Under the pieces are notes generated by a model. The model was not told the DNA's origin, did no database searches, and worked only from the letters and a program-made list of their open reading frames with translations. 64,000 nt of DNA from an uncultured Acidobacteriota bacterium (GTDB lineage: Bacteria > Acidobacteriota > Thermoanaerobaculia > Multivoradales > UBA5704). Of the stretch, positions 16,493 to 62,063 are shown in pieces. Made by a program: the position numbers and the translations under genes. Within the stretch, counting starts at the first letter, position 1. Each line of letters starts with the position of its first letter. Where the stretch lies: contig CAVYRF010000002.1 in the NCBI GenBank assembly GCA_963770895.1, positions 1,216,001 to 1,280,000 of the forward strand, given 5' to 3'.

Positions 16493-17731
16493 TCAGGCCA
16501 GCCGGTCGCGGATCCAGCAGCCGCCCAGGACGCGGCTGCCCTGGTAGAAGACGGCGGCCTGGCCCGGCGTGACGCCGCGCTGCGGCTGCAGAAACTCCAC
16601 CTCCACCTCCACCTCCACCTCGGCCGGGGCAGCGGGGCCGCCGGCGGCAGGCGCGGGCTGCGGCGGCCGCGGGTGGATGCGGGCGGCGACGCCTGGATGC
16701 CGGGAGCGGATGCGGACTGTGGCTTCGATGCCGCCGGCCGGCGACGCCGCCGGTGCATCGCCGATCCAGTGCAGGCGCTCGCCGAGCAGGCCCGGCGCCA
16801 TCAGCTGCCGCTCCTCCCCCACCACCACGCGGTTGTCGCCGGGCTCGATCGCCAGGACGTAGAGCGGATGGCGGCTGGCCACGCCCAGGCCGCGCCGCTG
16901 CCCGACGGTGTAGCGGTAGTACGGCTGACCCTGGCCCAGCACGGCGCCGCCGGAATCGACCAGCGTCGCCGGCCGGCCGAGCGCCACGCCGGCGGTGCCG
17001 GAGCCCGCGGCGGCCTGGGCGTCGGCGGCCGGCCGGGCGGCGCGGGCGGCGGTTTCGGCTTCCACAAACTCGCGGATGCCGCCGGAGACGAAGCACACTT
17101 CCATGCTCTCGCCCTTCTCCGCCACCACCAGGCCGGCGTCGCGGGCCAGCGCGCGCACCTGCGGCTTGGTCATGGCGCCCAACGGGAAGAGCGAAGCGGC
17201 AAGCTGCTCCTGCGACAGCTCGAACAGGTAGTAGCTCTGGTCCTTGTCGGCGTCCACCGCGGTGTGCAGCTCCCACCCGCCGGCGCCGCGCACGATGCGG
17301 GCGTAGTGGCCGGTCGCCACGGTCGCCGCTCCCAGGCGGCGGGCGCGCTCGTGCAGCAGGTCGAACTTGATCCAGGTGTTGCAGCGGACGCAGGGGCTGG
17401 GAGTGCGCCCGGCCAGGTAGTCGGCGACGAACGGGTCGACCACGTGGCGGCGGAACTCCTGGTCCAGGCGCAGCGTGTAGTGGGGGATGCCGGCCTGCTG
17501 CGCCACCCGCCGCGCGTCGCCCAGGTCCAGGGCGCCGCAGCAGCGGCCGTTGCTGGACACCGCGGAGTGGTCCCACAGCAGCATCGACAGGCCGATCACC
17601 GGCTGCCCGGCGCGGGCGAGCAGCCAGGCGGTCACCGACGAATCCAGGCCGCCGCTCATCGCCACCGCGATGCGATCGGTCGCGGCGCCCGCCGCCGCAC
17701 CCGGCAGCGCCACCGGCACGCCGCCGGTCAC
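16493..17731 (-). CDS. mnmA: tRNA 2-thiouridine(34) synthase MnmA
   Basis: [63 protein letters not shown] start overlaps the iscS stop. Confidence 0.95.
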
Positions 17732-18945
17732 GCCGGAACCCGCACCCGCCGGGTCGGCGCCAGCGACTCGCGCAGAGTCGCCACTTCGACCGTCAGCGCA
17801 TCCAGGAACAGGTCCACCTCGCCGGGCAGGTTGCGCGGGCCGAAGCTGATGCGCAGCGACGCCAGCGCTTCGTCCGCGGAAATGCCCATGGCGAGCAGCG
17901 TCTTGCTGGGCTCGACGACGCCCGAGGAACAGGCCGAGCCGGTCGACACCGCAAACCCGGCAAGGTCGAGCCGGATCAGCAGCGCTTCGCCCTCGACGCC
18001 GGGAAACGCCACGTGCGAGGTGTTGGGCACCCGCGGCCAGGCGCGGCAGTGGACGATGGCGCCGGGGATGGCCGCCAGCCCGTCTTCGAAGCGGTCGCGC
18101 AACGCCGCCATCCGCGCCGCGCGCTCGGGCAGCTCGGCCTGCACCAGGGCCGCCGCCGCCCCCAGGCCGACGATCGCCGGCACGTTCTCGGTGCCGGCGC
18201 GCCGCCGCCGCTCCTGGCTGCCGCCGAGCAGCAGCGGCTCGACGGTGCACCCCTCGCGCATCCACAGCGCCGCGGCGCCGAGCGGGCCGCCGAACTTGTG
18301 CGCCCCCAGGACCAGCAGGTCGGCACCCAGGCGGGTCACGTCCACCGGAATGCGGCCCACCGCCTGCGCCGCGTCGCAGAGCAGGGGTATGCCGCGCCGC
18401 TGGCACTCCGCCGCGACCTCGGCGACCGGCTGCACCGTCCCCACCTCGTTGTTGGCGAGCATCAGGCAGACCAGGCGGGTGTCGGGGCGCAGGGCGTCGA
18501 TCATCGCCGCCGCGCTGACCACGCCCGAAGGCGCGGGCGCCACGCGCGTGACCGCCATGCCGCGGCGCTCGGCGCGCGCCGCCGCCTGGCGCAGCGACGA
18601 GTGCTCCAGCTGCGACAGCACCAGGTGGCCCCCGCCGGCGTCGCCGACGCTGGCAACCACCGTATTGTTGGCCTCCGTCCCCGAGGCGGTGAAGATCACC
18701 TCCGGCGGCCGGGCGCCCAGCAGCGCCGCCACCCGCTCGCGCGCCTCCTCGACGGCGTTGCGCGCCGCCTGGCCGAAGCGGTGGATCGAAGAGGGGTTGC
18801 CGTGCCGCTCGCCGAGCCACGGCAGCATCGCTTCGCGGACCCGCGGGTCGAGCGGCGTGGTGGCGTTGTAATCCAGATAGACGTCGGCCCGGACGGGCTG
18901 GGGGTCGCTCCCTCCGGTGCGGGGCGGCTGCGCGGGCGGCACCAT
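17728..18945 (-). CDS. iscS: Cysteine desulfurase (IscS/NifS type)
   Basis: [42 protein letters not shown]. Confidence 0.93.
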
Positions 18946-19100
18946 GGCCGCGCCATTGTAGCGCGTGGTCTCAGCGAACGATCCGCAATTGGCTCTTGCG
19001 GCAGAAGGCAAACGCCGCCACAATGAGAGCCGCTGCCGCAATCTCTTTGCGGGTTGATGCGCATCCCGCGGAGCGGCGGTTACCTCCTGGAGTCACGACG

Positions 19101-21896
19101 ATGGCCATGCCTCGGACCCTGCGCGCTCCCCTCCTGACAGCTCTCCTCGCCGCGAGCCTGGCGGCACCGGCCTTGCCGGCGCTCGCCGCCGCTACCGCCG
19201 ACCAGGGCGGTGCCAACGACCAGGGCGGCCAGAGCGCCGCCGGTGGTCAGAGCCCGCAGGGCGGCCAAAACGCCCCAGGCGGACAGGGCGCCCAAAGCGG
19301 TCAGAGCGGTCAGAGCCCGCAGGGCGGACAGGCCGGCCAGGGGGGCCAAAGCGGTCCGAGCCAGGGAGGCCAGGCCGGCCAGACCGCCCCAAGCGGTCCG
19401 AGCCAGACCGCACAGAGCGGACAGCCCGGACAGGTCGCCCAGCCGGCGGTCCAGCTGCCCAACAGCAAGCCCGCCTCGAAGAGCGACAAAAAACTGATCG
19501 CCGCGCTGCCACCCAAATACCGCGAGTGGCTGGAGTTTGTCGATCTGCTGATCACCAAGGCGGAGAAGAAGTCGTTCCTGGCGCTCGCCGAGGACTACCA
19601 GCGCGACGCCTTCATCGAGCGCTTCTGGGAGGTGCGGGACGGCAACGGTACCCCCGGCGACTTCCGCCGCAGCTGGGAGGCGCGGGTCGAGCAGGTCATC
19701 GCGCAATACGGCTCGGTCAGGGACGACCGCGCGCGGGTGTTCCTGCTCAACGGCCCGCCGGGCGGCGTGATCGCCGAGCACTGCGCCACCGTCCTGTGGC
19801 CGATCGAAGCCTGGTACTACCAGCGCAGCGAGCGTTTCGGCAACGAATTTGTCGTCGTGTTCTTTCAGCTCTGGGGCGCCGGGCCGTGGCGGATCTGGGA
19901 GCCGACCGAGGGATTGGCCGACCTGTTCATGAACAACAACCCCTCCAACGGCCTGCAGGAGATCGTCAACGAATGCCGCAACGGCGACTCCATCGCCGGA
20001 GCGCTCAGCTGGGTGAACGGCCAAGGCCTGGGCTACATGACCCTGGAAGCGACCTTCCTGTCGAACGCCAAGGGGCCCGGCACCGAATGGATCAGCTCGT
20101 TCCATTCGTATTCGACCGACCTGGCGGCGACCACCTCGCCGCTGCCGGCCAAGCTGGAAACGTCCTACCCCGGACGCCACGGCGAGCGCACCCTGTTGCA
20201 GGCGCTGCTCACCGTGCCGGCGAGCAGCCCGGCGGTCGTGCAGCTCGCCGACCGCCGGTCGTACAACCTGCTGGTGACCGGCGAGATCCTGCAGGGCAAG
20301 CACCTGTTCGAAAACTTCCGCTACAAATTCGAGTTTCCGGGCGACGAGCCGCAGACCGCCAACCTGCCGGTCGTCTTCCAGCGCCCGCTGCGTCCCGGCC
20401 AGTACACGCTCATCGTCAAGCTGGAGGATCTCAACTCCAACAAGGCGGCGCGCATTCAGCAGGAGCTGACCGTGCCGCAGGTGGACAACGAAGCGCCGGC
20501 GCCGCCGCCGAGCGACCCCGAAACGCGCGAGGTGCTCAACGAAGCCAACGCCGCGCTCGGCACCGGCGAAACCACGCTCAAACTGATCGCGCCGCGCGGC
20601 GAGCTGCAGACCGGCATGAACCGCTTCGACACCCTGGCCACCGGCCACAACATCGAGCGCGTCACCTTCTCGCTCGACGGCAAGGCGATCCTCACCAAGG
20701 TGAAACCGCCGTTCAGCGTCGAGCTCGACCTGGGCAGCCTGCCGCGGCCGCGCACCCTGCTCGCCACCGCCTTTGACAAGGGCGGCGAACAGGTAGCCAG
20801 CGACGAGCTGATCATCAACGCCGCGCCGCACCGCTTCCGCGTGCGCCTGACCGAGCCGCAGAAGGGGCGCCGTTACAGCCGCAGCCTGCTGGCGCGCGTC
20901 GAGGCCGAAGTGCCCGAAGACGAGGTCCTGGACCGGGTGGAGATCTACCTCAACGAAGACCTGGTGGCGACGCTCTACCAGCCGCCGTTCACCCAGCCGA
21001 TCGTGCTGCCCAAGGGGCAGCCGCTCGCCTACGTGCGCGCGGTCGCCTACACCGACGACGACGCTTCGACCGAAGACCTGGTGTTCGTCAATGCCTTGGA
21101 CAGCAACATCGAGCAGCTCAACGTGCAGTACGTCGAGCTCTACACCGCTGTGCTCGATCGCGCGGGGCACCCCGCCATGGGCCTGACGGCAAAGGATTTC
21201 AACGTCACCGAAGACGGCGCCAAGCAGACCATCAGCCGCTTCGAACCGGTCGCCGACCTGCCCATTCACGCCGCGGTGGTGCTGGATTCCTCGGCCTCGA
21301 TGGAAAAGAGCATCCAGGAGGCGCGCGACGCCGCGCTGGGCTTCCTGCGCGACGCCATCCAGCCCAAGGACCGCGCGGCGATCATCACCTTCAACGACCA
21401 TCCCAACATCGGCGTCAAGTTTTCCAACGACCTGACGACCCTTGCCGGCGGCCTGGCCGGCCTCAAGGCCGAGCGCGGCACCTCGCTGTGGGACACCCTC
21501 ATCTTCACCCTCTTCTACTTCAACGGCGTCAAGGGCCAGCGCGCCATCCTGCTGCTCACCGACGGCCGCGACGAAGGCAGCCGCTTCACCTTCGAAGACG
21601 CCCTGGAAGACGTCCGCCGCGCCGGCGTCACCATCTACACCATCGGCCTGGGCCAGGACATCGAGAAACACAAGCTGTCGCGCCTCAGCGAAGAGACCGG
21701 CGGCCGCGCCTTCTTCATCAAGAACGCCGCCGAGCTGCCCGCCATCTACGCCACGATCGAGCAGGATCTGCGCTCGCAATACCTGATCGCCTACCAGTCC
21801 AACAACACCACTCCGGACAACGTCTTCCGCACCGTCGACGTCAAGGTCACCCGCTCCGGCCTGGAAGCCAAGACCCTGCACGGCTACTACCCGTAG
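19101..21896 (+). CDS. GWxTD-like domain + Ig-like + VWA domain secreted protein (paralog 1)
   Basis: Signal peptide, Gly/Gln/Ser repeats, FIERFWEVRD...DDRARVFLLNGPP, MIDAS DSSAS, LLTDG, LRSQYLIAY...GYYP. Confidence 0.8.
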   Translation: MAMPRTLRAPLLTALLAASLAAPALPALAAATADQGGANDQGGQSAAGGQSPQGGQNAPGGQGAQSGQSGQSPQGGQAGQGGQSGPSQGGQAGQTAPSGPSQTAQSGQPGQVAQPAVQLPNSKPASKSDKKLIAALPPKYREWLEFVDLLITKAEKKSFLALAEDYQRDAFIERFWEVRDGNGTPGDFRRSWEARVEQVIAQYGSVRDDRARVFLLNGPPGGVIAEHCATVLWPIEAWYYQRSERFGNEFVVVFFQLWGAGPWRIWEPTEGLADLFMNNNPSNGLQEIVNECRNGDSIAGALSWVNGQGLGYMTLEATFLSNAKGPGTEWISSFHSYSTDLAATTSPLPAKLETSYPGRHGERTLLQALLTVPASSPAVVQLADRRSYNLLVTGEILQGKHLFENFRYKFEFPGDEPQTANLPVVFQRPLRPGQYTLIVKLEDLNSNKAARIQQELTVPQVDNEAPAPPPSDPETREVLNEANAALGTGETTLKLIAPRGELQTGMNRFDTLATGHNIERVTFSLDGKAILTKVKPPFSVELDLGSLPRPRTLLATAFDKGGEQVASDELIINAAPHRFRVRLTEPQKGRRYSRSLLARVEAEVPEDEVLDRVEIYLNEDLVATLYQPPFTQPIVLPKGQPLAYVRAVAYTDDDASTEDLVFVNALDSNIEQLNVQYVELYTAVLDRAGHPAMGLTAKDFNVTEDGAKQTISRFEPVADLPIHAAVVLDSSASMEKSIQEARDAALGFLRDAIQPKDRAAIITFNDHPNIGVKFSNDLTTLAGGLAGLKAERGTSLWDTLIFTLFYFNGVKGQRAILLLTDGRDEGSRFTFEDALEDVRRAGVTIYTIGLGQDIEKHKLSRLSEETGGRAFFIKNAAELPAIYATIEQDLRSQYLIAYQSNNTTPDNVFRTVDVKVTRSGLEAKTLHGYYP
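19199..19440 (+). repeat. Imperfect in-frame tandem repeats encoding a GGQS/PQGGQ low-complexity linker
   Basis: Recurring cagggcggccagagc / ggtcagagcccgcag units. Confidence 0.75.
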
Positions 21897-21946: not shown

Positions 21947-23299
21947 TCAACGGGACGCACGGCCGCCGGTGTAGACGGTGGTCCGCGGGTGGTAGGTGCG
22001 CCAATCGAACCAGTAGTCCTTGAAGGCGGGGATGGGCTGCAGGCGCCGGCCGGCCAGCGGGCCGCTCAGCGCTACGCCGGCGAAGCTCCAGGCGCTGCCG
22101 GTGGCGCCGTCGACCCAGGGCGCGGCGGCGGCGCCGGCCGGCCCGGCGAACAGCGACAGGCGGCGGCCGTCGACGGCGCCGGCGAAGACGCGCATGGAGC
22201 GGCCGTCGTCGCCGGTCAGGATCACCAGCGGCACGCCTCCCAGGTCGTCCATGACCGGGCCGCCCTGGAGCCGCAGAAGGTCGACCGGGTAGGCGCGGTC
22301 GGCGCCGCCCAGCGTCAGGCCGACCACCAGGGTGCGCGGCGGCAGCGGACCGGCCGCGGCGCTGACCACCGGCAGGCGGTCGGTCGTCGCCTCCCAATCA
22401 GCGCTGAAGGCCCGCCAGTCCGCGCTGGCCGCGGGGCGCAGCACGCGGCCGCCGGGGTGCTCGGACCGCCAGGTGGCGAAGCTCACCTCGTCGGCGAAGA
22501 CCGGCTGCAGGCGGGTGCCGCGCAGCGGGCCCAGGAACGCCTTGCCGTCCGCCTGCTGCCACCACGAGCCGGTCTGCTCGTCCCGCATGATGAAGTTCTG
22601 GTTGTTGATGCCGCTCAGGTGAAAGGTGAGCCGCCGGCCGCCGTCGATCGCCGCGTTCCACACCAGACCGGTGTGGCAGAGCGTTCAGTAGGTGACCGCG
22701 ACGGGCGTTCCTCCCACGGTGTCGAGAACCACGTGGTGGTAGGCGATCTGGCGCACCGGATACGCCGCGGCGTCGCCGCCGATGGCAACCGCCAGCACCA
22801 TGTCCCGCGGATCGACGAAGGCAGACGCCGACGCGGCCGGAACGTAGCCCGGATGCGGCAGCGGCTTGAACATCAGCTCGAAATGGTTCACCCGTGAGAT
22901 CCCGGCGGACAGGCCGGCGACCAGGACCAGCAGCGCCAGCGCCGTCCGCGCCGGCCAGCGCGCGCCCCGCCACTGCCGCCAGGCCAGCGCCGCGACCGCC
23001 GCCAGCGCCAGGAGCGTCGCGAGCGGCGAGATGCGGCGCAGCACGTACGCCTTGGTCACCAGCGCGGAGGTCTGGGGAGCGAAGGGCCGCAGCGCCCAGG
23101 CCGGCGACAGCACCATCCACAGGGCCGCGCCGGCGATGGCGACCAGGGCCGCCCAGCGCCACGCCCGCCAGCGGTCGCGCGCCGCCGCCGGGGCGCCGGC
23201 CACCGGGGCGCCCGACGCCGCGCCAGGAGCCGCGACCGCCAGGTCGTGCGGCGGGGTTGCGGGCGTTGCCCGGGGATCGCGCGGGTCGTGGTGCGGCAT
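21947..23299 (-). CDS. Membrane-anchored DUF3179 selenoprotein (450 aa, Sec at codon 205, UxxC)
   Basis: ORFs 22685-23299 and 21947-22663 share a frame, separated only by TAC TGA ACG CTC TGC (Y-U-T-L-C) where DUF3179 has YCPLC. AAAYP...HHVVLD precedes it and MRDEQTGSWWQQ follows. Confidence 0.88.
22651..22684 (-). promoter_or_regulatory. Bacterial SECIS-like hairpin
   Basis: mRNA after UGA: A-CGC-UCUG-CCACACC-GGUCU-GGUGUGG-AAC-GCG. Perfect 7-bp upper stem; the G-led apical loop starts 16 nt after UGA. Confidence 0.75.
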
Positions 23300-23409
23300 G
23301 CGGGCACCTCCTGGTCAAGGCATCGGCGGTCTGCCGGCCGGCACAGCTTATCGCCACCCGGATGACGGCGCGACAGCCGCTGGCAGGGTGCTTGCTTTGC
23401 TTCCCCGGC

Positions 23410-26202
23410 ATGGACGAGCGCGGCCCCTTCGAACCACCCCACGGCACCTGGCCTGACCTGCAGGCGCGGGCTCGCCTCCTGGCCGGCCGGGCATGGCGGC
23501 GGGTGCGCGGCGCCGGCGCCGACCTGTCCCGCTTCGTGGGCGAGCGGCGATGGCTGCGCCTGAGCCTGATCGCCGCCGCGGCCGCGACCGCGGCGCTGGC
23601 CGTGGCGGGAGGGGCGGCCTGGCAGACCTGCGGCTTTGCCGGCTGCCCCGACGCCGCGCGGCTCGCCGCCTACCGGCCGGACGGGGCGCCGCTGCTGCTC
23701 GACCGTCACGGTCAGGTCATCGCCACGCTGTCGCCGGACGACGGTTCCCAGGTGCGGCTGGCTTCGCTCCCCGCCCATGTCGCGGCGGCCTTCGTGGCGA
23801 TCGAGGACCGGCGCTTCTTCGAGCACGGCGCCGTGGACTGGCGCCGCGCCGTCGGCGCCTTCACCGCCAACCTGCGCGCGCACGCCATCGAGCAGGGCTT
23901 CAGCACCCTGTCGATGCAGCTGGCGCGCAACGTCTTCCCGCAGGAGATCCCGGGCAGGGAACGCACCCCGTCGCGCAAGCTGATCGAGATCCGCGTCGCG
24001 CAGCAGCTGGAAGCGCGCTACAGCAAGCCCGAGATCCTGGAGCTATACCTCAACCACATCTACTTCGGCAACGGCGCCCGCGGTATCGAGGCGGCGGCCT
24101 GGCAGTACTTCCGCGAGCCGGCGGCGCGCCTCACCCTGGCGCAGGCGGCCCTGCTCGCCGCGCTGCCCAAGGCGCCCACGCGCTACGATCCGCGGCGCCA
24201 CCCGGACCGCGCGCTGACGCGCCGCAACCTGGTCCTGGCGTGCATGGCGGCGCAGGGACGCATTGCGTCCAGCAGCGCCGCCGCGGCAAGGCACGAACCC
24301 TTGGGCGTGCGTCCGCCGCCCGAACGCCCGCCCGGCCAGCCGGTGGTCGCCTCCTATTTCGTCGAGGAGGTGCGGCACCAGCTGGAGGAGCGCTTCGGCG
24401 CCAGCCTGTACGACCAGCCGGTGCGGGTATGGACCAGCCTCGACCTGACGGCTCAACGCGCCGCCGAGGAAGAGCTGGAGCACCAGCTGCAAGCGATCGA
24501 GGCGCACGGCCTGCGGCACGCGGCGCGGGCGAAGGCGGACGACGACGACGGCGGCGACCAGCGGCTGGAGGGGGCGGTCGTGACCCTCGCCGCCGCCAGC
24601 GGCGACGTGCTGGCCTGGGTGGGAGGCCGCGACGGCGACGCGTCGCGGTTCGACCGCGTGGCCAATGCCCGGCGGCAGGTGGGCAGCGCCTGGAAGCCCT
24701 TTGTCTACGCCGCCGCCCTGGCGCGCGGCGTGCCGCTCAGCCAGAACATCGCCGACACGCCGCTGGTCGTGCCGCTGGGCGGCGGCGCCAGCTGGGAGCC
24801 GCGCAACTACGACGGTTCCTTCGACGGCCAGGTAACCCTGCGCGAAGCCCTGGTCCGCTCCAAGAACGTGCCGACCGTGCGTCTGTCGCAGGCGATCGGC
24901 TACGGCCAGATCGCCGAGCTGGCGGCCAGCGACGGCATCCCGGCGGATGGGCCCCTGGTGCCGTCGATGGCGCTCGGCACCGTCGCCGCCTCGCCGCTCA
25001 AATTGACCGCCGCGTATTCCGCCTTTGCCAACCTGGGCTGGCGCGCCACGCCGCGCCTCATCCTGCGCGTCGATCGCGCCGACGGCACGACGCTGTGGAC
25101 GGCGCCGGTGCCCAACCGGCGGCAGGTGCTCGATCCATCGGTCGCCTACCTGCTGGACGACGCGCTGCGCGACGCGATGCTGCGCGGCAGCGGCGCCCCC
25201 GGCCTGCCGCCGGGCCTGGCCGGACGCGCCGGCGGCAAGACCGGCACCAGCACCGGCGGCGACGACGTCTGGTTCGTCGGCTTCACGTCCGAGGTGGTCA
25301 CCGGCGTCTGGATCGGCTTCGACGAACCGCGACCCATCGCCAACCAGGCCACCGGCGGCCGCCTTGCCGCGCCGATCTTCCGCCGCCTGATGACCCGCTT
25401 CTACGCCGGGCGCCCCGCCCCCGCCTGGCCGGCCATGCCCGCCGGCGTCGAAACCGCGGCGATCGACCCGGTCAGCGGCCGGGTGCTGTCGGCCGGCTGC
25501 GTTCCCGCCGGCGGCGTCCCGGCCCGGCAGGAACTGTTCCTGGCCGGCCACGAGCCCGAATCCGCCTGCCCCGGCGACGTCACCGCCGATGCCGCGCTGG
25601 TGACGATCTCGCCGGCGGCGGCAACGGTGCCGGCGGCCTATCAGCAGGACGACGAATCTTCGGCAACGCGCGACGCGGCCGGCGGCGAGGCTCCGGCGGG
25701 CGATGCGGCGACGGCGCCGACCGCCCCCGCGGCAGCCGTGCCGCGGGACGGCGCGGCGGCGGCATCCGAGCAAGCGGGCGCCGGCGCTGGCGGCGGCGTC
25801 ATCGTCTCCGGCGGCGCCACCGGCATCTCGGCCAGCGCCACCAATCTCGCGGGGTGGTGGACCGTCGTCATGACCGCCGACGGCGCTTCCGGCACCGCCC
25901 GCGGCGCGCGCCAGACCTACCTGGTCGCGCTGCGCCAGCAGGGCACGGAGGTCACCGGCAGCGGCGAATGCTGGGAAGTGGACGGCCGCCAGCTCGCCGC
26001 CGGCTCGCGCAACCGCATCGACGTCGCCGGCACCATCGAAGGCCGCGAAGTCCGCCTCCACTTCACCGAGCGCGGCTCCGACCAGGGCAACGCCGGCACC
26101 CTCTTCTTCCACCTGGCACCCGGCGGCCAGGACCTGGCCGGCACCTTCACCGCCGGCGCCGACAACGCGCACGGCGTCGCAGCGGCCACGCGCCTGCGCT
26201 GA
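23410..26202 (+). CDS. Class A penicillin-binding protein (PBP1A family) with an extra C-terminal domain
   Basis: Transglycosylase motifs IEDRRFFEH, GFSTLSMQLARN, RKLIE, KPEILELYLN; transpeptidase motifs SAWK, SKN, KTGT. Confidence 0.9.
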   Translation: MDERGPFEPPHGTWPDLQARARLLAGRAWRRVRGAGADLSRFVGERRWLRLSLIAAAAATAALAVAGGAAWQTCGFAGCPDAARLAAYRPDGAPLLLDRHGQVIATLSPDDGSQVRLASLPAHVAAAFVAIEDRRFFEHGAVDWRRAVGAFTANLRAHAIEQGFSTLSMQLARNVFPQEIPGRERTPSRKLIEIRVAQQLEARYSKPEILELYLNHIYFGNGARGIEAAAWQYFREPAARLTLAQAALLAALPKAPTRYDPRRHPDRALTRRNLVLACMAAQGRIASSSAAAARHEPLGVRPPPERPPGQPVVASYFVEEVRHQLEERFGASLYDQPVRVWTSLDLTAQRAAEEELEHQLQAIEAHGLRHAARAKADDDDGGDQRLEGAVVTLAAASGDVLAWVGGRDGDASRFDRVANARRQVGSAWKPFVYAAALARGVPLSQNIADTPLVVPLGGGASWEPRNYDGSFDGQVTLREALVRSKNVPTVRLSQAIGYGQIAELAASDGIPADGPLVPSMALGTVAASPLKLTAAYSAFANLGWRATPRLILRVDRADGTTLWTAPVPNRRQVLDPSVAYLLDDALRDAMLRGSGAPGLPPGLAGRAGGKTGTSTGGDDVWFVGFTSEVVTGVWIGFDEPRPIANQATGGRLAAPIFRRLMTRFYAGRPAPAWPAMPAGVETAAIDPVSGRVLSAGCVPAGGVPARQELFLAGHEPESACPGDVTADAALVTISPAAATVPAAYQQDDESSATRDAAGGEAPAGDAATAPTAPAAAVPRDGAAAASEQAGAGAGGGVIVSGGATGISASATNLAGWWTVVMTADGASGTARGARQTYLVALRQQGTEVTGSGECWEVDGRQLAAGSRNRIDVAGTIEGREVRLHFTERGSDQGNAGTLFFHLAPGGQDLAGTFTAGADNAHGVAAATRLR

Positions 26203-29063: not shown

Positions 29064-29124
29064 CCGCCGGGCGCGCTCTTGGCGCTTGCCGGGGACAGGC
29101 AAGGGCGGGTAGTATGTGGTCGTT

Positions 29125-31971
29125 ATGCCAATGCGTTTGCGGTTGCGGTTAGGGCAGGTTGCGCGGATCATCGCCAGCTGCGCGGCGATGCTGGTGTGCG
29201 CGGGCGGCGGCGCTCGCGGGCTGGCGGCGGGGGCGGGCGCGCCTCCTCCGACCCCTCCGACCGCGGCCACGACGCCGGCGACGGCGCCGCCAGGCGTCGC
29301 GGCGTCGCTCGACGACCTGGCCGGCGGCGGGTCCGGCGCGGGGGACCTGGATCCCAAATACAGGGCCTGGCTGGAAGAGGTGGCGCCGCTGATCAACGAG
29401 CGCGAGCGGAAGGTGTTTCTGGCGCTCAACCGGGACTACCAGCGCGACGAATTCATCCAGAAATTCTGGGACGTGCGGGACCCCTACCCCGAGACGCCGC
29501 AAAACGAGCTGCGGGACGAGTGGGAGGAGCGCATCAAGGCGGCGCGCGACCGCTACGGCAACGTCACCGAAGACCGCGCGCGGGTGCTGCTGATCCACGG
29601 CGAGCCCGCCCACGTCTTCCATTCGCGCTGCTCGGACGTGGTGCTGCCGCTGGAGATCTGGTCCTACGAAAAGATGAAGCGGTCGCGGCGCGAATACGCC
29701 GTGGTGTTCGTGCAGGACATGGGGGCGGTCCGCGGCCGCTATCGCCTGTGGGCGCCCGGCGAAGGGCTGCTGCCGCTGCTGGCGATGCAGGCGCGCTCCC
29801 GCTACGTCGAGCACGCGGACGACTCGGCCGCCCTGGCGTCCTGCCTGGAGGGGTCGGACATCGCCGGCTACCTGACCGAAGCGATCGACGAAAAGCAGCT
29901 GGAGGAAAAGGGCCACGTGCTGCCGCGGCCCAGCGACGAATGGCTGTCCAGCTTCGCCGCCGCCTCCACCGACCTGCCGGCGGGCGCGACGCCGCTGCCG
30001 GCCGATCTGGACATCTCGTTTCCGGGCCGCGCCGGCAGCCGCACGGTGATGCAGGGGCTGGTCCACGTGCCGCGCCAGGCGACGGCGCCGGAGCAGGTGG
30101 GCGACCGCTCGTTCTTCGCCTTCGTGGTCGACGGCGAAGTGTTGCGCAACGACCAGCTGTTCGAGCACTTCCGCTACCGTTTCAGCTTCCCGGTGGAGGC
30201 GCCGGCCGCCGCACCGGCGGCAAAGGCGGCAGCGTCCGCCGCGCCGGCGGCCGGGTCGGCCACGTCTGCCACATCTGCCGCGCCGGCCGCAACCAGTGCC
30301 GAAGGCGTCCCCGGCACCGGCGGCAGCGAGATCCCGCTGGTGTTTCAGCGCTACTTCCGGCCCGGCACCTACACCCTGCTGCTGAAGGTCGAAGACATCG
30401 GCGGCAAGCGCTTCTACCGCGCCGAGCGCGATCTGAACGTCCCCGCGGTGGCCGCACCGGTACAGACGGCGGCCTTGCCGGGCGCGCCGGGGACCGCCGC
30501 CACGCCGACGACGCCGGCAGCGGCGCCGGCGGCCGGCGGCGGCGCCGGCGCCACCACGGCCAGCACCGCCGCCGGGCCGGGCAGCGCCCCGGGGGCACAG
30601 CTGGCCGAAGCCAATGCCGCGATCCGCGCCGGCGACCAGACCGTGCGGCTGCTGCCACCGCAGGACGGCCTGTTGACCGGGGCGGTGCGCATCGAAGCGA
30701 TCGCCGACGGCGGCGGCATCGACCACGTGCGCTTCCAGCTCGACGGCAAGCCGGCGCTGACCAAGCGGCACTCGCCCTACAGCGTCGATCTCAACCTGGG
30801 CTCGCAGCCTCGCGCGCACGTCGTCAAGGCCTTTGCCGAGGGGGCGGACGGCAAGGTCCTGGCCGAAGACCAGCTGGTGCTCAACGCCGGCCCGCACCGT
30901 TTTTCGGTGCGCCTGATCGAGCCGCAGGCAGGCAAGATGTATCGCGCCAGCCTGCGCGCGGAGGCGCAGGTGGAGGTGCCCGAGGGCGAAAAGCTGGACC
31001 GGCTCGAGCTGTACCGCAACGACGCGCTGGTGGCGACGCTCTATCAGCCGCCCTGGACGCAGCCGATCCTGCTGCCGGCCAGCTCGCAGGTGTCCTACGT
31101 GCGCGCCGTCGCCTACCTGGCGGACGGCAATTCCTGCGAAGACCTGGTGCTGGTCAACTCGCCCAATCCGGGCGAGCGGATCGACGTGCAGATGGTGGAG
31201 CTGTACACCACCGTCACCGATCGCCGCGGCAGGCCCGTCGACGGCCTGCAACGCGACGACTTCAAGGTCTACGAAGACGGCGCCGAGCAGTCGGTGCGCC
31301 GCTTCGAGCGCGTCCAGGATCTGCCGATCTACGCCGGCGTGCTGCTCGACACCTCGGGCTCGATGCTGGATCACCTGGACACCGCGGTGCAGGCGGCGCT
31401 CAGCTTCTTCCACACCGTGATCACCCCCAAGGACCGCGCAGCGGTGATCACGTTCAACGGCGAGCCCAACCTGGCGGTGCGCTTCACCAACAACTCCGAA
31501 GTGCTCGCCGGCGGCCTGGCGGGGCTGCGCGCCGACGGCAGCACCGCGCTGTACGACAGCATCATCTACACCCTCTACTACTTTGGCGGCGTGCGCGGCA
31601 AGCGCGCGGTGGTGCTGCTGACCGACGGCAAGGACGAAGGCAGCCGCTTCCGCTACGCCGAAGCGCTCGAATATGCCAAGCACAGCGGCATCGCCTTTTA
31701 CACCATCGGCCTGGGGCTCACCGCCAAGGAGCCCGACATCCGCATGAAGCTGGTGGAGATCGCCGACCAGACGGGCGGCCGCTCGTTCTTCATCGACCGG
31801 GTGGTCGAGCTGTCGGGGGCCTATCGCCAGATCGAAGCGGAGCTGCGCTCGCAGTACCTGATCGCCTACCAGTCCACGAAGCAGGGCAGCGACGGCAAGT
31901 TCCGCAACGTCGAGGTCAAGCTGGATCGCTCCGGCATGGCCGCCCGCACGGTTCCCGGGTACTACCCCTGA
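29125..31971 (+). CDS. GWxTD-like domain + Ig-like + VWA domain secreted protein (paralog 2)
   Basis: FIQKFWDVRDP...EDRARVLLIHGEP, MIDAS DTSGS, LLTDGKD, LRSQYLIAY...GYYP; colinear with 19101-21896. Start uncertain (29116-29131). Confidence 0.8.
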   Translation: MPMRLRLRLGQVARIIASCAAMLVCAGGGARGLAAGAGAPPPTPPTAATTPATAPPGVAASLDDLAGGGSGAGDLDPKYRAWLEEVAPLINERERKVFLALNRDYQRDEFIQKFWDVRDPYPETPQNELRDEWEERIKAARDRYGNVTEDRARVLLIHGEPAHVFHSRCSDVVLPLEIWSYEKMKRSRREYAVVFVQDMGAVRGRYRLWAPGEGLLPLLAMQARSRYVEHADDSAALASCLEGSDIAGYLTEAIDEKQLEEKGHVLPRPSDEWLSSFAAASTDLPAGATPLPADLDISFPGRAGSRTVMQGLVHVPRQATAPEQVGDRSFFAFVVDGEVLRNDQLFEHFRYRFSFPVEAPAAAPAAKAAASAAPAAGSATSATSAAPAATSAEGVPGTGGSEIPLVFQRYFRPGTYTLLLKVEDIGGKRFYRAERDLNVPAVAAPVQTAALPGAPGTAATPTTPAAAPAAGGGAGATTASTAAGPGSAPGAQLAEANAAIRAGDQTVRLLPPQDGLLTGAVRIEAIADGGGIDHVRFQLDGKPALTKRHSPYSVDLNLGSQPRAHVVKAFAEGADGKVLAEDQLVLNAGPHRFSVRLIEPQAGKMYRASLRAEAQVEVPEGEKLDRLELYRNDALVATLYQPPWTQPILLPASSQVSYVRAVAYLADGNSCEDLVLVNSPNPGERIDVQMVELYTTVTDRRGRPVDGLQRDDFKVYEDGAEQSVRRFERVQDLPIYAGVLLDTSGSMLDHLDTAVQAALSFFHTVITPKDRAAVITFNGEPNLAVRFTNNSEVLAGGLAGLRADGSTALYDSIIYTLYYFGGVRGKRAVVLLTDGKDEGSRFRYAEALEYAKHSGIAFYTIGLGLTAKEPDIRMKLVEIADQTGGRSFFIDRVVELSGAYRQIEAELRSQYLIAYQSTKQGSDGKFRNVEVKLDRSGMAARTVPGYYP

Positions 31972-59555: not shown

Positions 59556-60619
59556 ATGACCACTGTGAACCTTGCCGCGCCGCCTGCGTTTCGTCTGACC
59601 GGGTGCGCCAAGACCGGGGGCTGCGCCGCCAAGGTCGGCCCCGGCGACCTGGCGCAGCTGATCGGGCCGCTGGCCGGCCGGCTGCGCGGCGGCGACGCGC
59701 GCGTCCTGGTCGGTCCCGAAACGGGCGACGACGCCGGGGTGTTTCTGCTGGACGGGCGCGCCCTGATCGCCACCACCGATTTCATCCCACCGCTGTGCGA
59801 CGACCCGTTCCGCTTCGGCCGCATCGCCGCCGCCAACGCCCTGTCCGATGTCTACGCCATGGGTGGCAAGCCGCTGTTCGCCCTCAACCTGTGCTGCTTC
59901 CCCCCACCGGCATCCCTGAGGGCGTCCTGGCGGCAATCCTGGAAGGCGGCGCCGCGGCGCTGGCCGAAGCGGGAGCAGCGCTGCTGGGCGGCCATTCGGT
60001 GCGCGATCCCGAGCTCAAGTTCGGCTTGGCGGTGATCGGCGAGGCGGCACCCGACCGCCTGCTCACCAACGCCGGCGCCCGCGCCGGCGACCACCTGGTC
60101 CTCACCAAGCCCCTTGGCGCCGGCGTCCTGGTCAACGCCTTCAAGATCGGCCGCCTGGACGACGTCGGCCTCGAACCCGTCCTGGTAGAGATGGAGCGGC
60201 TCAACGCCACGGCCTCGCGCCTGGCCCTGGAACACGGCGCCCACGCCGCCGTGGACGTCACCGGCTTCGGCCTGGTCGGCCACGCCCTGGGCATGGCCCG
60301 CGCCTCGGACGTCGCCATGCGCTTCGACTTTGCCAGCCTGCCGGTGCAGGCCGACTTCTATCGCATGGCCGCCGCCGGCGTCACCACCGGCTGCACCGAA
60401 GCCAACCGCAAATACTCCAGCGCCGTCTTCACCGCCCGCGACGATCTCAGCTCGATCCAGCACGAGCTGCTCTTCGATCCCCAAACCTCCGGCGGCCTCC
60501 TGATCGTCCTGCCCGCCGGAGCCGCCCCCAACCTCCTGGAAGCCCTGCACGCCACCGGCCACCGCGCCGCCCAGATCGGCCAGGTGCTCCCCGGCCCCCC
60601 ACACATCCAGATCGCCTAG
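59556..60619 (+). CDS. selD: Selenide, water dikinase SelD (Cys form); one frameshift in a C-run at about 59900-59905
   Basis: [31 protein letters not shown], then in the other frame [35 protein letters not shown]. Confidence 0.92.
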
Positions 60620-60662: not shown

Positions 60663-60791
60663 TTGCACGGGTAGGAAGGCCGGAACCGACCGCAAACTCG
60701 GATCTTGCCAGAGAAGGGCGGGAAAAAGGGCGGGCGCGTCGGTGCGTCCGGGCCGAGCGTCACCCCTGCGACGAGCGACCCGGCCGGGCTC

Positions 60792-61598
60792 CTATTCTTC
60801 GGGCGCCGGCGCGTCCGACCTCGCGAGGAGTCGTGTTTCCAGCCTCTCCATCCGACGCTCCAGGGCCTCGATGCGGGCCAGAAGCTGGGCAACCGAAGGC
60901 GCCGCGGCCGGCGGTCCGGACGCCGGCGTCGCGTACGTGGAGTGTGCTGTGGTCGCGACCCGCGCGGCGCTCCCGCCGCCACCGGCTCTCCCGGCAGCAG
61001 GGGCGCTCGCGGCGTTGCCACTTACCGTGCTCACCGCCGTACGGAGCGCCGGCCAGGCCGGCGATTCCGCTCCGGAGGTCGATTCGGGCGCCGCCGGTGG
61101 GTCGCCCAGCAGGTGGCACCAGCGGAGCTCGCGCTGGCCGACGCGGCGCGGCAGCTGGCCCACCAGGGGCTCGTCCTGCGCGGAAAGGCGCTCCAGCAGC
61201 TGCTCCACCTGGGCGAGCGAGTCGAAGCGGTGCATGCGCTCGCTGCGTTCGCCCAACTGGCCGGTGGTCTGCGGTCCGCGCAGCAGCAGCTGGGTCAGCA
61301 GCGCCTTGCTCGGCGGGTCCAGGTCCCAGCGCCGGTCGACGCTCTGCTTGAAGCGTTCCACGCGGGCGCCCTCGGTGCGCCAGACCAGCACGTCCTGGCG
61401 CAGGCGCTCGACCGCCGCGGCCACCTCGGATTCGGTGAGCTGCATCACCGGCTCGCGGTTGGTCTTCTGGTCGCAGGCGGCCACCAGCGCATTGAGCGAG
61501 AGCGGGTAGGCCTCCGGCGTGGTCTGCTCCTTTTCGAGCAGCGCCCCCAACACCCGGATCTCCACCGGGTCGAGCAGACGAGGGATGCGGCGAGACAT
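60792..61598 (-). CDS. DUF480 (YceH) family protein
   Basis: EIRVLGALLEKEQTTPEAYPLSLNALVAACDQKTNREPVM, LLLRGPQT, GQRELRWCHLL. Confidence 0.92.
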   Translation of the reverse strand: MSRRIPRLLDPVEIRVLGALLEKEQTTPEAYPLSLNALVAACDQKTNREPVMQLTESEVAAAVERLRQDVLVWRTEGARVERFKQSVDRRWDLDPPSKALLTQLLLRGPQTTGQLGERSERMHRFDSLAQVEQLLERLSAQDEPLVGQLPRRVGQRELRWCHLLGDPPAAPESTSGAESPAWPALRTAVSTVSGNAASAPAAGRAGGGGSAARVATTAHSTYATPASGPPAAAPSVAQLLARIEALERRMERLETRLLARSDAPAPEE

Positions 61599-61646
61599 TG
61601 CAAAGTCCTCCTGACGACAACCCCGGAATCTATTGTCGATCGGGGC

Positions 61647-61675
61647 TTGCGCTTGCAAAGCGATAGTGCCATACT
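61647..61675 (+). promoter_or_regulatory. Candidate sigma-70 promoter for the cold-shock gene
   Basis: TTGCGC-N17-CATACT with TG one base before the -10 (extended -10). Confidence 0.45.
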
Positions 61676-62063
61676 CCCGCCTAATTCCTGTGCCTTACGG
61701 ATTCGTACTCTAGCGACACACTTTTGGACCTTGCTCTGCACTCTATTTGCAGGTGAAGCCGTTGATCCGAGCAGGTGCAGTGCCCCACTACCGACGATCT
61801 CTTGCCCAGCGCTGTGATCGCACGCTCCCACAATTCGACTTTTTGAACTTTGTAACCCCGACGGACTCGCCGGATACCCCATAACCCCATAGCGCCGTTT
61901 GCTATCACCAAAACTACAACGTGGTCAGTCTGGGGGAAGCCGGGTACTTGTCGAACGAGGGGTGATCGATTGGATCTGTCCTCCCCCGGCATGAGGGGGG
62001 TGGGGCGATAATGCCGTTCTGCATCGCGGCGATCATCAACAACCTGTTTCAAGGAGCAAGAGT

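Follow-up and report, generated by a model that had tools for sequence, protein, structure and literature searches.

Introduction

Does an in-frame TGA triplet in the genome of an uncultured Acidobacteriota bacterium (Thermoanaerobaculia, Multivoradales, UBA5704) end a short membrane protein, or is it translated as selenocysteine (Sec, U) inside one longer gene? The triplet lies at positions 22685-22687, on the minus strand, of a 64,000-nucleotide stretch of DNA (GenBank assembly GCA_963770895.1, contig CAVYRF010000002.1, positions 1,216,001 to 1,280,000), which we refer to as the window and number from its first letter. An initial annotation had read the open reading frames (ORFs) on either side of it as one hidden selenoprotein of the DUF3179 family, with a UxxC motif and a hairpin of the selenocysteine insertion sequence (SECIS) type. 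We find that 23299..21947 (minus strand) is very probably a single intact gene for a 450-residue DUF3179-family selenoprotein, and that its internal TGA is almost certainly translated as selenocysteine, aided by a highly conserved RNA hairpin.

Two reading frames joined through one TGA

In the ORF list of the window, 22685..23299 (204 aa, starting with ATG) and 21947..22663 (238 aa, starting with GTG) share one frame of the minus strand. When the TGA between them is read as U, translation fuses both into 450 residues running through PVAVTY-U205-TLCHTG, and U205 and C208 are the sole Sec and Cys residues of the protein. The Pfam domain DUF3179 (PF11376) spans the TGA, matching residues 149-440 with E 1.5e-61 and 208.9 bits (cut-off 27) and covering profile positions 9-292 of 292, which bears out the joining of the two ORFs into one 450-codon gene; no NCBIfam family model matched the protein. 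The elements of the gene are as follows.

21947..23299, minus strand: whole gene, 450 codons plus a terminal TGA stop (21949-21947), predicted membrane-anchored DUF3179 selenoprotein
22685..22687, minus strand: predicted Sec codon UGA, codon 205, first position of U-T-L-C-H
23307..23312, minus strand: Shine-Dalgarno-like AGGAGG, 7 nt 5' of the ATG at 23299-23297, read from the sequence only

To follow the TGA among homologues, we searched 41 genomes (the organism's own and those of its genus, family and order) and found a DUF3179 match in 32 of them. The close relatives (51-63% identity) have exactly one in-frame TGA in 12 of 12 cases, as does the window gene, and in all 13 genes it falls at codon 205. 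A scan of species-representative genomes returned 493 relatives; among the best 80 of these, 79 carry TGA and one (L130) carries TGC at the Sec codon. Taken together, the 13-gene set and the best 80 of 493 have TGA at this codon in 92 of 93 orthologues. Since the triplet recurs at the same codon in 92 genes, assembly error cannot account for it. The best 80 come from metagenome-assembled genomes (MAGs) labelled mostly Pyrinomonadaceae, Blastocatellia, Thermoanaerobaculia or Acidobacteriota, with one labelled Gemmatimonadales and several labelled Heliomicrobium.

More distant paralogous loci have TGC (Cys) at the Sec codon in 14 of 17 cases, and in an alignment of 127 family members the Sec column is Cys, conserved in at least 90% of them. 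This is the Cys/UGA pairing among homologues that the initial annotation had singled out, and it agrees with a UxxC motif (U205-T-L-C208) in which UGA stands for Sec. The remaining three of the 17 distant loci, all from genomes of the same order (L041, L044 and L052), have TGA in another motif, W-U-P-I-D-H or W-U-P-A-A-Q; they represent a second Sec-containing DUF3179 subfamily, one without the second Cys.

The suspicion that gene callers split this gene in two also holds for its homologues at large: 51 of 88 database homologues are 248-306-aa pieces that begin just past the TGA, and P0165 is a piece that ends at residue 204.

A near-invariant hairpin directly downstream of the UGA

Reading on from the UGA, 8 nt (ACGCUCUG) lead to a stem arm, CCACACC (22676-22670), which is separated from its partner arm GGUGUGG (22664-22658) by the loop GGUCU (22669-22665).

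22658..22676, minus strand: hairpin CCACACC-GGUCU-GGUGUGG, beginning 8 nt past the UGA, inside codons C208-W214

As had been described for this site, the stem is perfect (7 bp) and the loop is led by a G, which is the 16th base past the UGA. The 25-nt hairpin has a folding energy of -12.3 kcal/mol (z -3.14; 0 of 200 shuffles as good), and the 43-nt stretch around it gives z -2.71. In the bacterial SECIS (bSECIS) model as set out in PMC13188914, a loop of 3-9 nt with a G in its first two positions sits on a stem of 4-16 bp, the energy is -7.5 kcal/mol or lower, and 16-37 nt separate the UGA from the apical loop; the window hairpin agrees with that description in loop (5 nt), stem (7 bp), first-position loop G and energy. 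It resembles the bacterial SECIS of this Zhang & Gladyshev model (PMC13188914) in lying inside the coding region directly 3' of the UGA, with a 5-nt GG-led loop and a 7-bp stem, and differs in being short-spaced, almost invariant in sequence over a phylum-level gene set, and without an Rfam family.

Conservation of the hairpin goes well beyond that of its fold. Across the 92 Sec forms, whose genes range from 47 to 78% in G+C, the 19-nt element occurs in only three variants: UCACACC-GGUCU-GGUGUGG (72 of 92), CCACACC-GGUCU-GGUGUGG (19 of 92), which differs from the first by C-G versus U-G at the stem base, and CCACACA-GGUCU-UGUGUGG (1 of 92, L100), in which a C-G pair has undergone a compensatory change to A-U. 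Homologues that combine the UGA with a conserved hairpin, by which the first reading could be judged, are therefore the rule among the Sec forms. At four hairpin codons with at least 4-fold degeneracy (Thr ACC, Gly GGT, Leu CTG and Val GTG), one codon is used in at least 98.9% of the 92 genes, while 0 of 33 equally conserved codons elsewhere are as frozen (maximum 84.8%, median 53%). The 13-gene set gives a like picture, with frozen synonymous sites at 4 of 4 codons inside the hairpin and 1 of 55 outside it. The contrast between hairpin and other codons within one gene is plain in these alignments, and on such comparative grounds we regard the hairpin as evolving as an RNA element, beyond coding constraint.

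Among the best 80 of 493, Cys occurs only in L130, from an Acidobacteriaceae MAG. This gene retains C-T-L-C-H-T-G-L, but where the hairpin used to be, four sites have changed, synonymously or nearly so; it reads UCACACGGGGUUGAUCUGG there, and no hairpin is formed. Judged by its sequence, L130 is a natural Sec-to-Cys (or Cys-to-Sec) transition.

SelB binds hairpins of this kind and delivers Sec-tRNA(Sec) to the UGA. By the established bacterial mechanism, SelB with GTP and Sec-tRNA(Sec) would bind the window hairpin and deliver Sec to codon 205. We take the GGUC of its loop to resemble the apical loop of the E. coli fdhF SECIS. The loop of the window SECIS recurs letter for letter in the second Sec subfamily, where L041 and L044 show the hairpin GCGU-GGUCU-ACGC.

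Sec machinery in the genome and the state of selD

The genome that contains the window (8.16 Mb in 3 contigs) encodes selA (443.6 bits, above cut-off, no stops), selB (286.4 bits, above cut-off, a 718-aa open frame with no stops) and tRNA-Sec (75.2 bits; called tRNA-SeC with anticodon tca by ARAGORN), so that selA, selB and selC, on whose presence the initial annotation had made its case depend, are all found. The only copy of selD lies inside the window itself, at 59556-60619 (plus strand). In the same-genus genomes selD is in a single frame in 9 of 9 cases and has TGA (Sec) where the window genome has TGC (Cys), giving the motif GG-U-AAK as against GG-C-AAK in the window. A GGUCC-GGG-GGACC hairpin begins 12 nt past the UGA in these genes (L133-L141), and the SelD of the same-genus relatives is itself, on this pattern, a predicted selenoprotein. 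The ORF at 60705-61817, adjoining selD, has no NCBIfam match.

Weighing Sec decoding against a stop and other recoding

Several results count against Sec decoding. As assembled, selD lies in two frames, one from the ATG at 59556 to about 59906 and another from there to 60619, and the frame appears to change by 1 nt within six consecutive C at about 59900-59905. A public contig of 278 nt, from a source with 98.5% identity (depth 2.8, 4 differences), has an extra C in this run, a weak hint that the shift is an assembly homopolymer error or that an intact strain variant exists; this one low-depth contig is the only one that shows the extra C. Around the hairpin, the 81-nt context is not unusually stable (z -0.63; 51 of 200 shuffles as good), and the distance from UGA to loop is at the lower limit of the published model, with 15 nt in between and the first loop base as the 16th. 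An Rfam scan of 22400-22900 with E up to 10 gave no SECIS family match. Furthermore, the orthologues are kin, so the Fisher p of about 1e-5 for the frozen codons overstates their independence. A small-RNA match in the same Rfam scan (E 0.11) was dismissed as chance.

Were the TGA a true stop, whether in a pseudogene, through a sequencing error or between two genes, the locus would yield a 204-residue membrane protein and a separate fragment of about 238 residues. This would fit the outcome of standard ORF calling, which yields exactly two ORFs, as well as databases full of such pieces, a selD that is frameshifted as assembled, and a terminator of the gene that is likewise TGA. It does not fit a TGA that 92 of 93 orthologues, over 47-78% G+C, share at one codon, the intact frame on both sides, or a nucleotide-frozen hairpin that is lost only in the Cys form. 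The TGA falls inside both the Pfam match and repeat 1 of the model (see below), and the first start codon past it varies among homologues, at query residues 212-238. We consider a true stop very improbable. Recoding of the UGA to Trp, Gly or Cys, through a variant code or near-cognate readthrough, is less credible still: nothing specific speaks for it beyond a frame that is open when TGA is read as a residue, and it is opposed by the TGA that terminates the window gene itself, by the presence of selA, selB and tRNA-Sec(tca), by Cys at this position in homologues together with a conserved SelB-type hairpin, and by a same-genus selD that also has a Sec codon and hairpin.

A modelled tandem Rieske-like fold

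The AlphaFold model of the full protein (pLDDT 92.0, pTM 0.87) has three long helices followed by two beta-rich halves, and the halves form an internal repeat, with 34% identity over 127 columns (E 2e-17).

22454..22831, minus strand: DUF3179 repeat 1, residues ~157-282, Rieske-like as modelled, with H188, H189, U205, C208 and H209
21986..22360, minus strand: DUF3179 repeat 2, residues ~314-438, Rieske-like as modelled, without those His/Sec/Cys residues

In a structure search with the whole model, matches of the anchor to helical bundles swamped the rest, so repeat 1 was modelled by itself (pLDDT 94.4). Compared with 48,161 chains, it gave Rieske-type chains at ranks 1-45 of the 50 matches listed, save for one with an uninformative title (7yls_B), and these comprised Rieske ferredoxins, Rieske proteins, Rieske oxygenases and nitrite-reductase small subunits. 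The top match, 1vm9_A, has Z 8.1 and rmsd 2.8 with 92 of 109 residues aligned; ranks 46-50 have Z of 3.9 or lower. For repeat 2, a second-look list holds Rieske-type chains in 47 of 50 places, aligned at residues ~330-440 (3gce, for example, aligns over 92 of 104 residues at Z 8.2 and rmsd 3.0). Foldseek with repeat 1 agrees in rank with the Rieske list (best E 0.04; TM 0.57 by target).

The resemblance has clear limits, which weigh against taking it too far: it is at the level of fold only, and its scores are middling, with a best Z of about 8. Against the PDB, Foldseek gave nothing at E ≤0.001 for either the whole model or repeat 1, and comparing the DUF3179 alignment with 24 Rieske domains in hhalign yielded a probability of 1.3%. 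A Pfam search with E up to 10 returned no PF00355 Rieske match for either repeat. The CxH...(15-17 residues)...CxxH ligands that are invariant in the 24 Rieske domains, taken from the own and related genomes, have no counterpart here. Membership of the Rieske family was rejected, since these ligands are absent and similarity at the sequence level is unsupported; as modelled, the DUF3179 domain is a Rieske-like fold used twice, yet not a Rieske protein. When set beside Rieske domains (PF00355; Rieske ferredoxins, bc1/b6f Rieske proteins, N-domains of oxygenase alpha-subunits and cluster-less NirD-like proteins), each modelled repeat superposes on nearly whole Rieske ferredoxins, whereas the His, Sec and Cys residues of DUF3179 would, by linear correspondence, lie N-terminal to the Rieske cluster loops.

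These residues are among the best conserved in the family. At least 90% of 127 family members keep H188, D193, C205 (the Sec column), C208, D240, T243, W247 and Q249, along with several Gly and Pro residues, and the 93 orthologues additionally keep H189 and H209 (at least 97%) and the whole stretch T203-W214. In the model, H188 and H189 close a short helix ahead of a hairpin of strands, and U205-x-x-C208-H209 forms the turn past the second strand of that hairpin; H188/H189, U205, C208 and H209 may be in contact. A reading of U-T-L-C-H as a CxxCH haem c site was set aside, as His209 is subfamily-specific and the motif is placed by the model in a beta strand-turn-strand.

A three-helix anchor with the domain predicted outside

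The three modelled helices coincide with three hydrophobic segments that precede the DUF3179 domain, in keeping with the membrane anchor proposed at the outset. Hydropathy (Kyte-Doolittle, KD) and charge means were computed over 92 orthologues.

23093..23155, minus strand: hydrophobic segment 1, residues ~49-69, mean KD 2.47, K+R 0.03, modelled helix 38-69
22979..23032, minus strand: hydrophobic segment 2, residues ~90-107, mean KD 2.01, no charges, modelled helix 78-110
22895..22945, minus strand: hydrophobic segment 3, residues ~119-135, mean KD 2.21, modelled helix 115-134

The N-terminal tail and loop 2 have the highest density of lysine and arginine (K+R), at 3.61 per 14.6 aa and 3.86 per 11.4 aa; loop 1 is intermediate (3.18 per 20), and the stretch past helix 3 has the least (1.39 per 15). 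Under the positive-inside rule this distribution favours an N-terminus inside and a DUF3179 domain outside, and we infer that the three N-terminal helices anchor the protein with its domain on the outer (periplasmic) face. Anchor residues kept in the 93 orthologues are P66, P72, F73, Q76, N138, F140, E141, M143, F144 and P146, the last six of which belong to a motif C-terminal to segment 3, N138-x-F-E-x-M-F-x-P146, whose residues are kept in at least 95% of sequences. Canonical DUF3179 proteins have one hydrophobic N-terminal segment in the alignment, which we read as being of signal-peptide or lipoprotein type.

A redox couple or a metal site

What might such a protein do? An extracytoplasmic, Se-dependent thiol oxidoreductase had been suggested at the outset. 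Among 17 long homologues, five have an N-terminal AhpC-TSA/Redoxin domain, with the motif NFWA[ST]WCxxC behind a single hydrophobic anchor; we take WCxxC plus an anchor to be the signature of periplasmic reductases of the TlpA/ResA/CcmG type. These fusions of anchor, redoxin domain and DUF3179 suggest a reductase-client or relay link to such reductases on the outer face, and would make the thiol oxidoreductase role more plausible. The window protein itself differs from TlpA/ResA/CcmG reductases in having no redoxin domain, the partnership being read from fusions in other subfamilies. It differs likewise from thioredoxin-fold oxidoreductases, which carry CxxC at a helix N-terminus: it has no thioredoxin-type Pfam match, its U-x-x-C lies between two strands of the Rieske-like repeat, and redoxin domains occur only as fusions elsewhere.

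In the mechanism that we favour, and to which we give about even credence, U205 would be a nucleophile cycling with C208 through a selenenylsulfide, with H188 nearby and the domain facing outward, and a periplasmic thiol-disulfide reductase of the TlpA/ResA type would re-reduce the U205-C208 selenenylsulfide. We prefer it because Sec stands at the first position of the motif, because forms without a second Cys exist, and because redoxin fusions recur. The Sec forms U-P-I-D-H and U-P-A-A-Q have no second Cys, and a nucleophile fits such forms better than would a Cys2 metal knuckle.

Two findings weigh against this mechanism. Across 17 orthologous loci the gene has no conserved neighbour. In addition, the near-invariant His188, Sec205 and Cys208, with H189 and H209 of the subfamily, fit a metal site equally well. 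The main alternative is therefore that Sec205, Cys208 and His form a metal centre (e.g. Cu, Fe, Ni, Zn or an iron-sulfur cluster) in place of a thiol/selenol couple, in which case the protein would handle metal or transfer electrons outside the cytoplasm, on a Rieske-like scaffold. Its case draws on H188, C205 and C208 being kept in at least 90% of the 127 family members, on the addition of H189 and H209 in the Sec subfamily (at least 97% of 93 orthologues), and on U205 and C208 being the only Sec and Cys available. The modelled scaffold is compatible with it, and the modelled U-x-x-C at a turn between two strands presumably resembles a metal knuckle. TlpA-type reductases keep metal-binding cysteines reduced, and so the redoxin fusions are compatible with a metal site too. 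Sec in the UxxC motifs of metal-binding families is also listed in reviews. Against a metal centre stand the members without a second Cys, namely UxxT as tabulated in PMC9312934 and PMC13188914, CPLTGT (P0089), U-P-I-D-H and U-P-A-A-Q. The canonical Rieske CxH...CxxH is absent, Pfam shows no Rieske domain even with E allowed up to 10, and no metal-related genes recur beside the gene at the 17 loci. We judge a metal centre possible, if short of likely, and keep to the selenenylsulfide mechanism as our working preference.

Genomic neighbourhood

The initial annotation had placed the gene divergent from a PBP1A gene, and its neighbour on that side is indeed a class A penicillin-binding protein (PBP), with Transgly (1.3e-57) and Transpeptidase (3.5e-23) Pfam domains in ORF 22894-26202.

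23410..26202, plus strand: class A penicillin-binding protein, divergent; putative start at ATG 23410, the first in-frame ATG past the intergenic gap
18996..21896, plus strand: 966-aa protein with von Willebrand factor A (VWA) and bacterial immunoglobulin-like (Ig) domains, convergent

A second VWA/Ig protein, Maf, a SpoU methylase, an MnmA-like gene and a NifS/IscS-like cysteine desulfurase are also among the neighbours in the window, and none shows a functional link to the DUF3179 gene. At the 17 orthologous loci, Sua5, Ddl and arginase recur only among close kin, and a Mo-hydroxylase is found at 2 of 17. The DUF3179 selenoprotein gene appears to stand alone.

Two further features of the region are worth recording. 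The DUF3179-PBP1A pair lies between two large, paralogous-looking proteins, encoded at 18996-21896 and 29116-31971 (both plus strand), each with a bacterial Ig domain and, at its C-terminus, a VWA domain. At 16493-19041 (minus strand), an MnmA-type tRNA 2-thiouridylase lies directly 3' of the NifS/IscS-like cysteine desulfurase, which scores 390 bits to NifS, below cut-off; the two are a possible sulfur-relay pair. The MnmA ORF as listed is over-long, its domain beginning at residue 383.

Discussion

DUF3179, with the motif UxxC/T, is tabulated as a 'predicted' selenoprotein family in two reviews (PMC9312934, 2022; PMC13188914, 2026), both of which credit Zhang & Gladyshev 2007 (PMC1976440). 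Among the new families that the 2007 paper describes as having Cys homologues and SECIS-like hairpins, OS_HP1-3, either OS_HP1 or OS_HP2 may correspond to DUF3179. The tables and passages on DUF3179 in PMC9312934, PMC13188914 and PMC1976440 give it no fold, topology or function. The NCBI name of a 433-aa homologue with 51% identity (P0007) reads 'DUF3179 domain-containing (seleno)protein [Vicinamibacteria bacterium]'. The word 'hidden' in the initial annotation is thus right for gene callers and wrong for the literature, in which the family is catalogued and the (seleno)protein name exists.

The window gene shares with the known DUF3179 selenoprotein family the Pfam domain, Sec as the first residue of UxxC, Cys homologues in the same column and a downstream hairpin, and its subfamily differs from canonical DUF3179 in its three-helix anchor and its invariant U-T-L-C-H and H188-H189, where the canonical motif is C-P-L-C-N. 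It is a well-supported additional member of a known selenoprotein family, not a discovery. The literature has recorded Sec in DUF3179 since 2007, and the leads presented here leave that unchanged.

The family is large, with 8375 cluster representatives at E up to 0.001, and includes database homologues with several copies of the domain (P0096 and P0102): one protein of 1587 aa has five DUF3179 stretches with fibronectin type III domains, and the other, of 1004 aa, combines a redoxin domain with two copies of DUF3179, whose motifs are CPLCG and CPLCH.

An annotation of the window should merge the two ORFs as one selenoprotein gene; mis-splitting of this kind is common. As a natural SECIS, the near-invariant hairpin offers a clean case for the SelB of soil bacteria of the Acidobacteriota type. 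Useful leads, at the level of fold and comparison, come from the Rieske-like architecture, the Sec/Cys pair with its histidines, the fusions to redoxins and the SECIS with its near-invariant sequence; the tandem Rieske-like fold, the presumably outward Sec/Cys pair plus histidines and the TlpA/ResA-type fusions, in particular, open DUF3179 to functional tests. A bolder reading, which we put forward as speculative and rather unlikely, is that DUF3179 is an unrecognised tandem Rieske-fold module that has lost its cluster and built a new His/Sec/Cys(/His) centre elsewhere in repeat 1, nearly always selenium-based in Acidobacteriota-type bacteria and tethered by three helices, with either a selenium-ligated metal or Fe-S site or a TlpA-fed selenenylsulfide relay. 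If true, this would be a new kind of periplasmic redox cofactor site.

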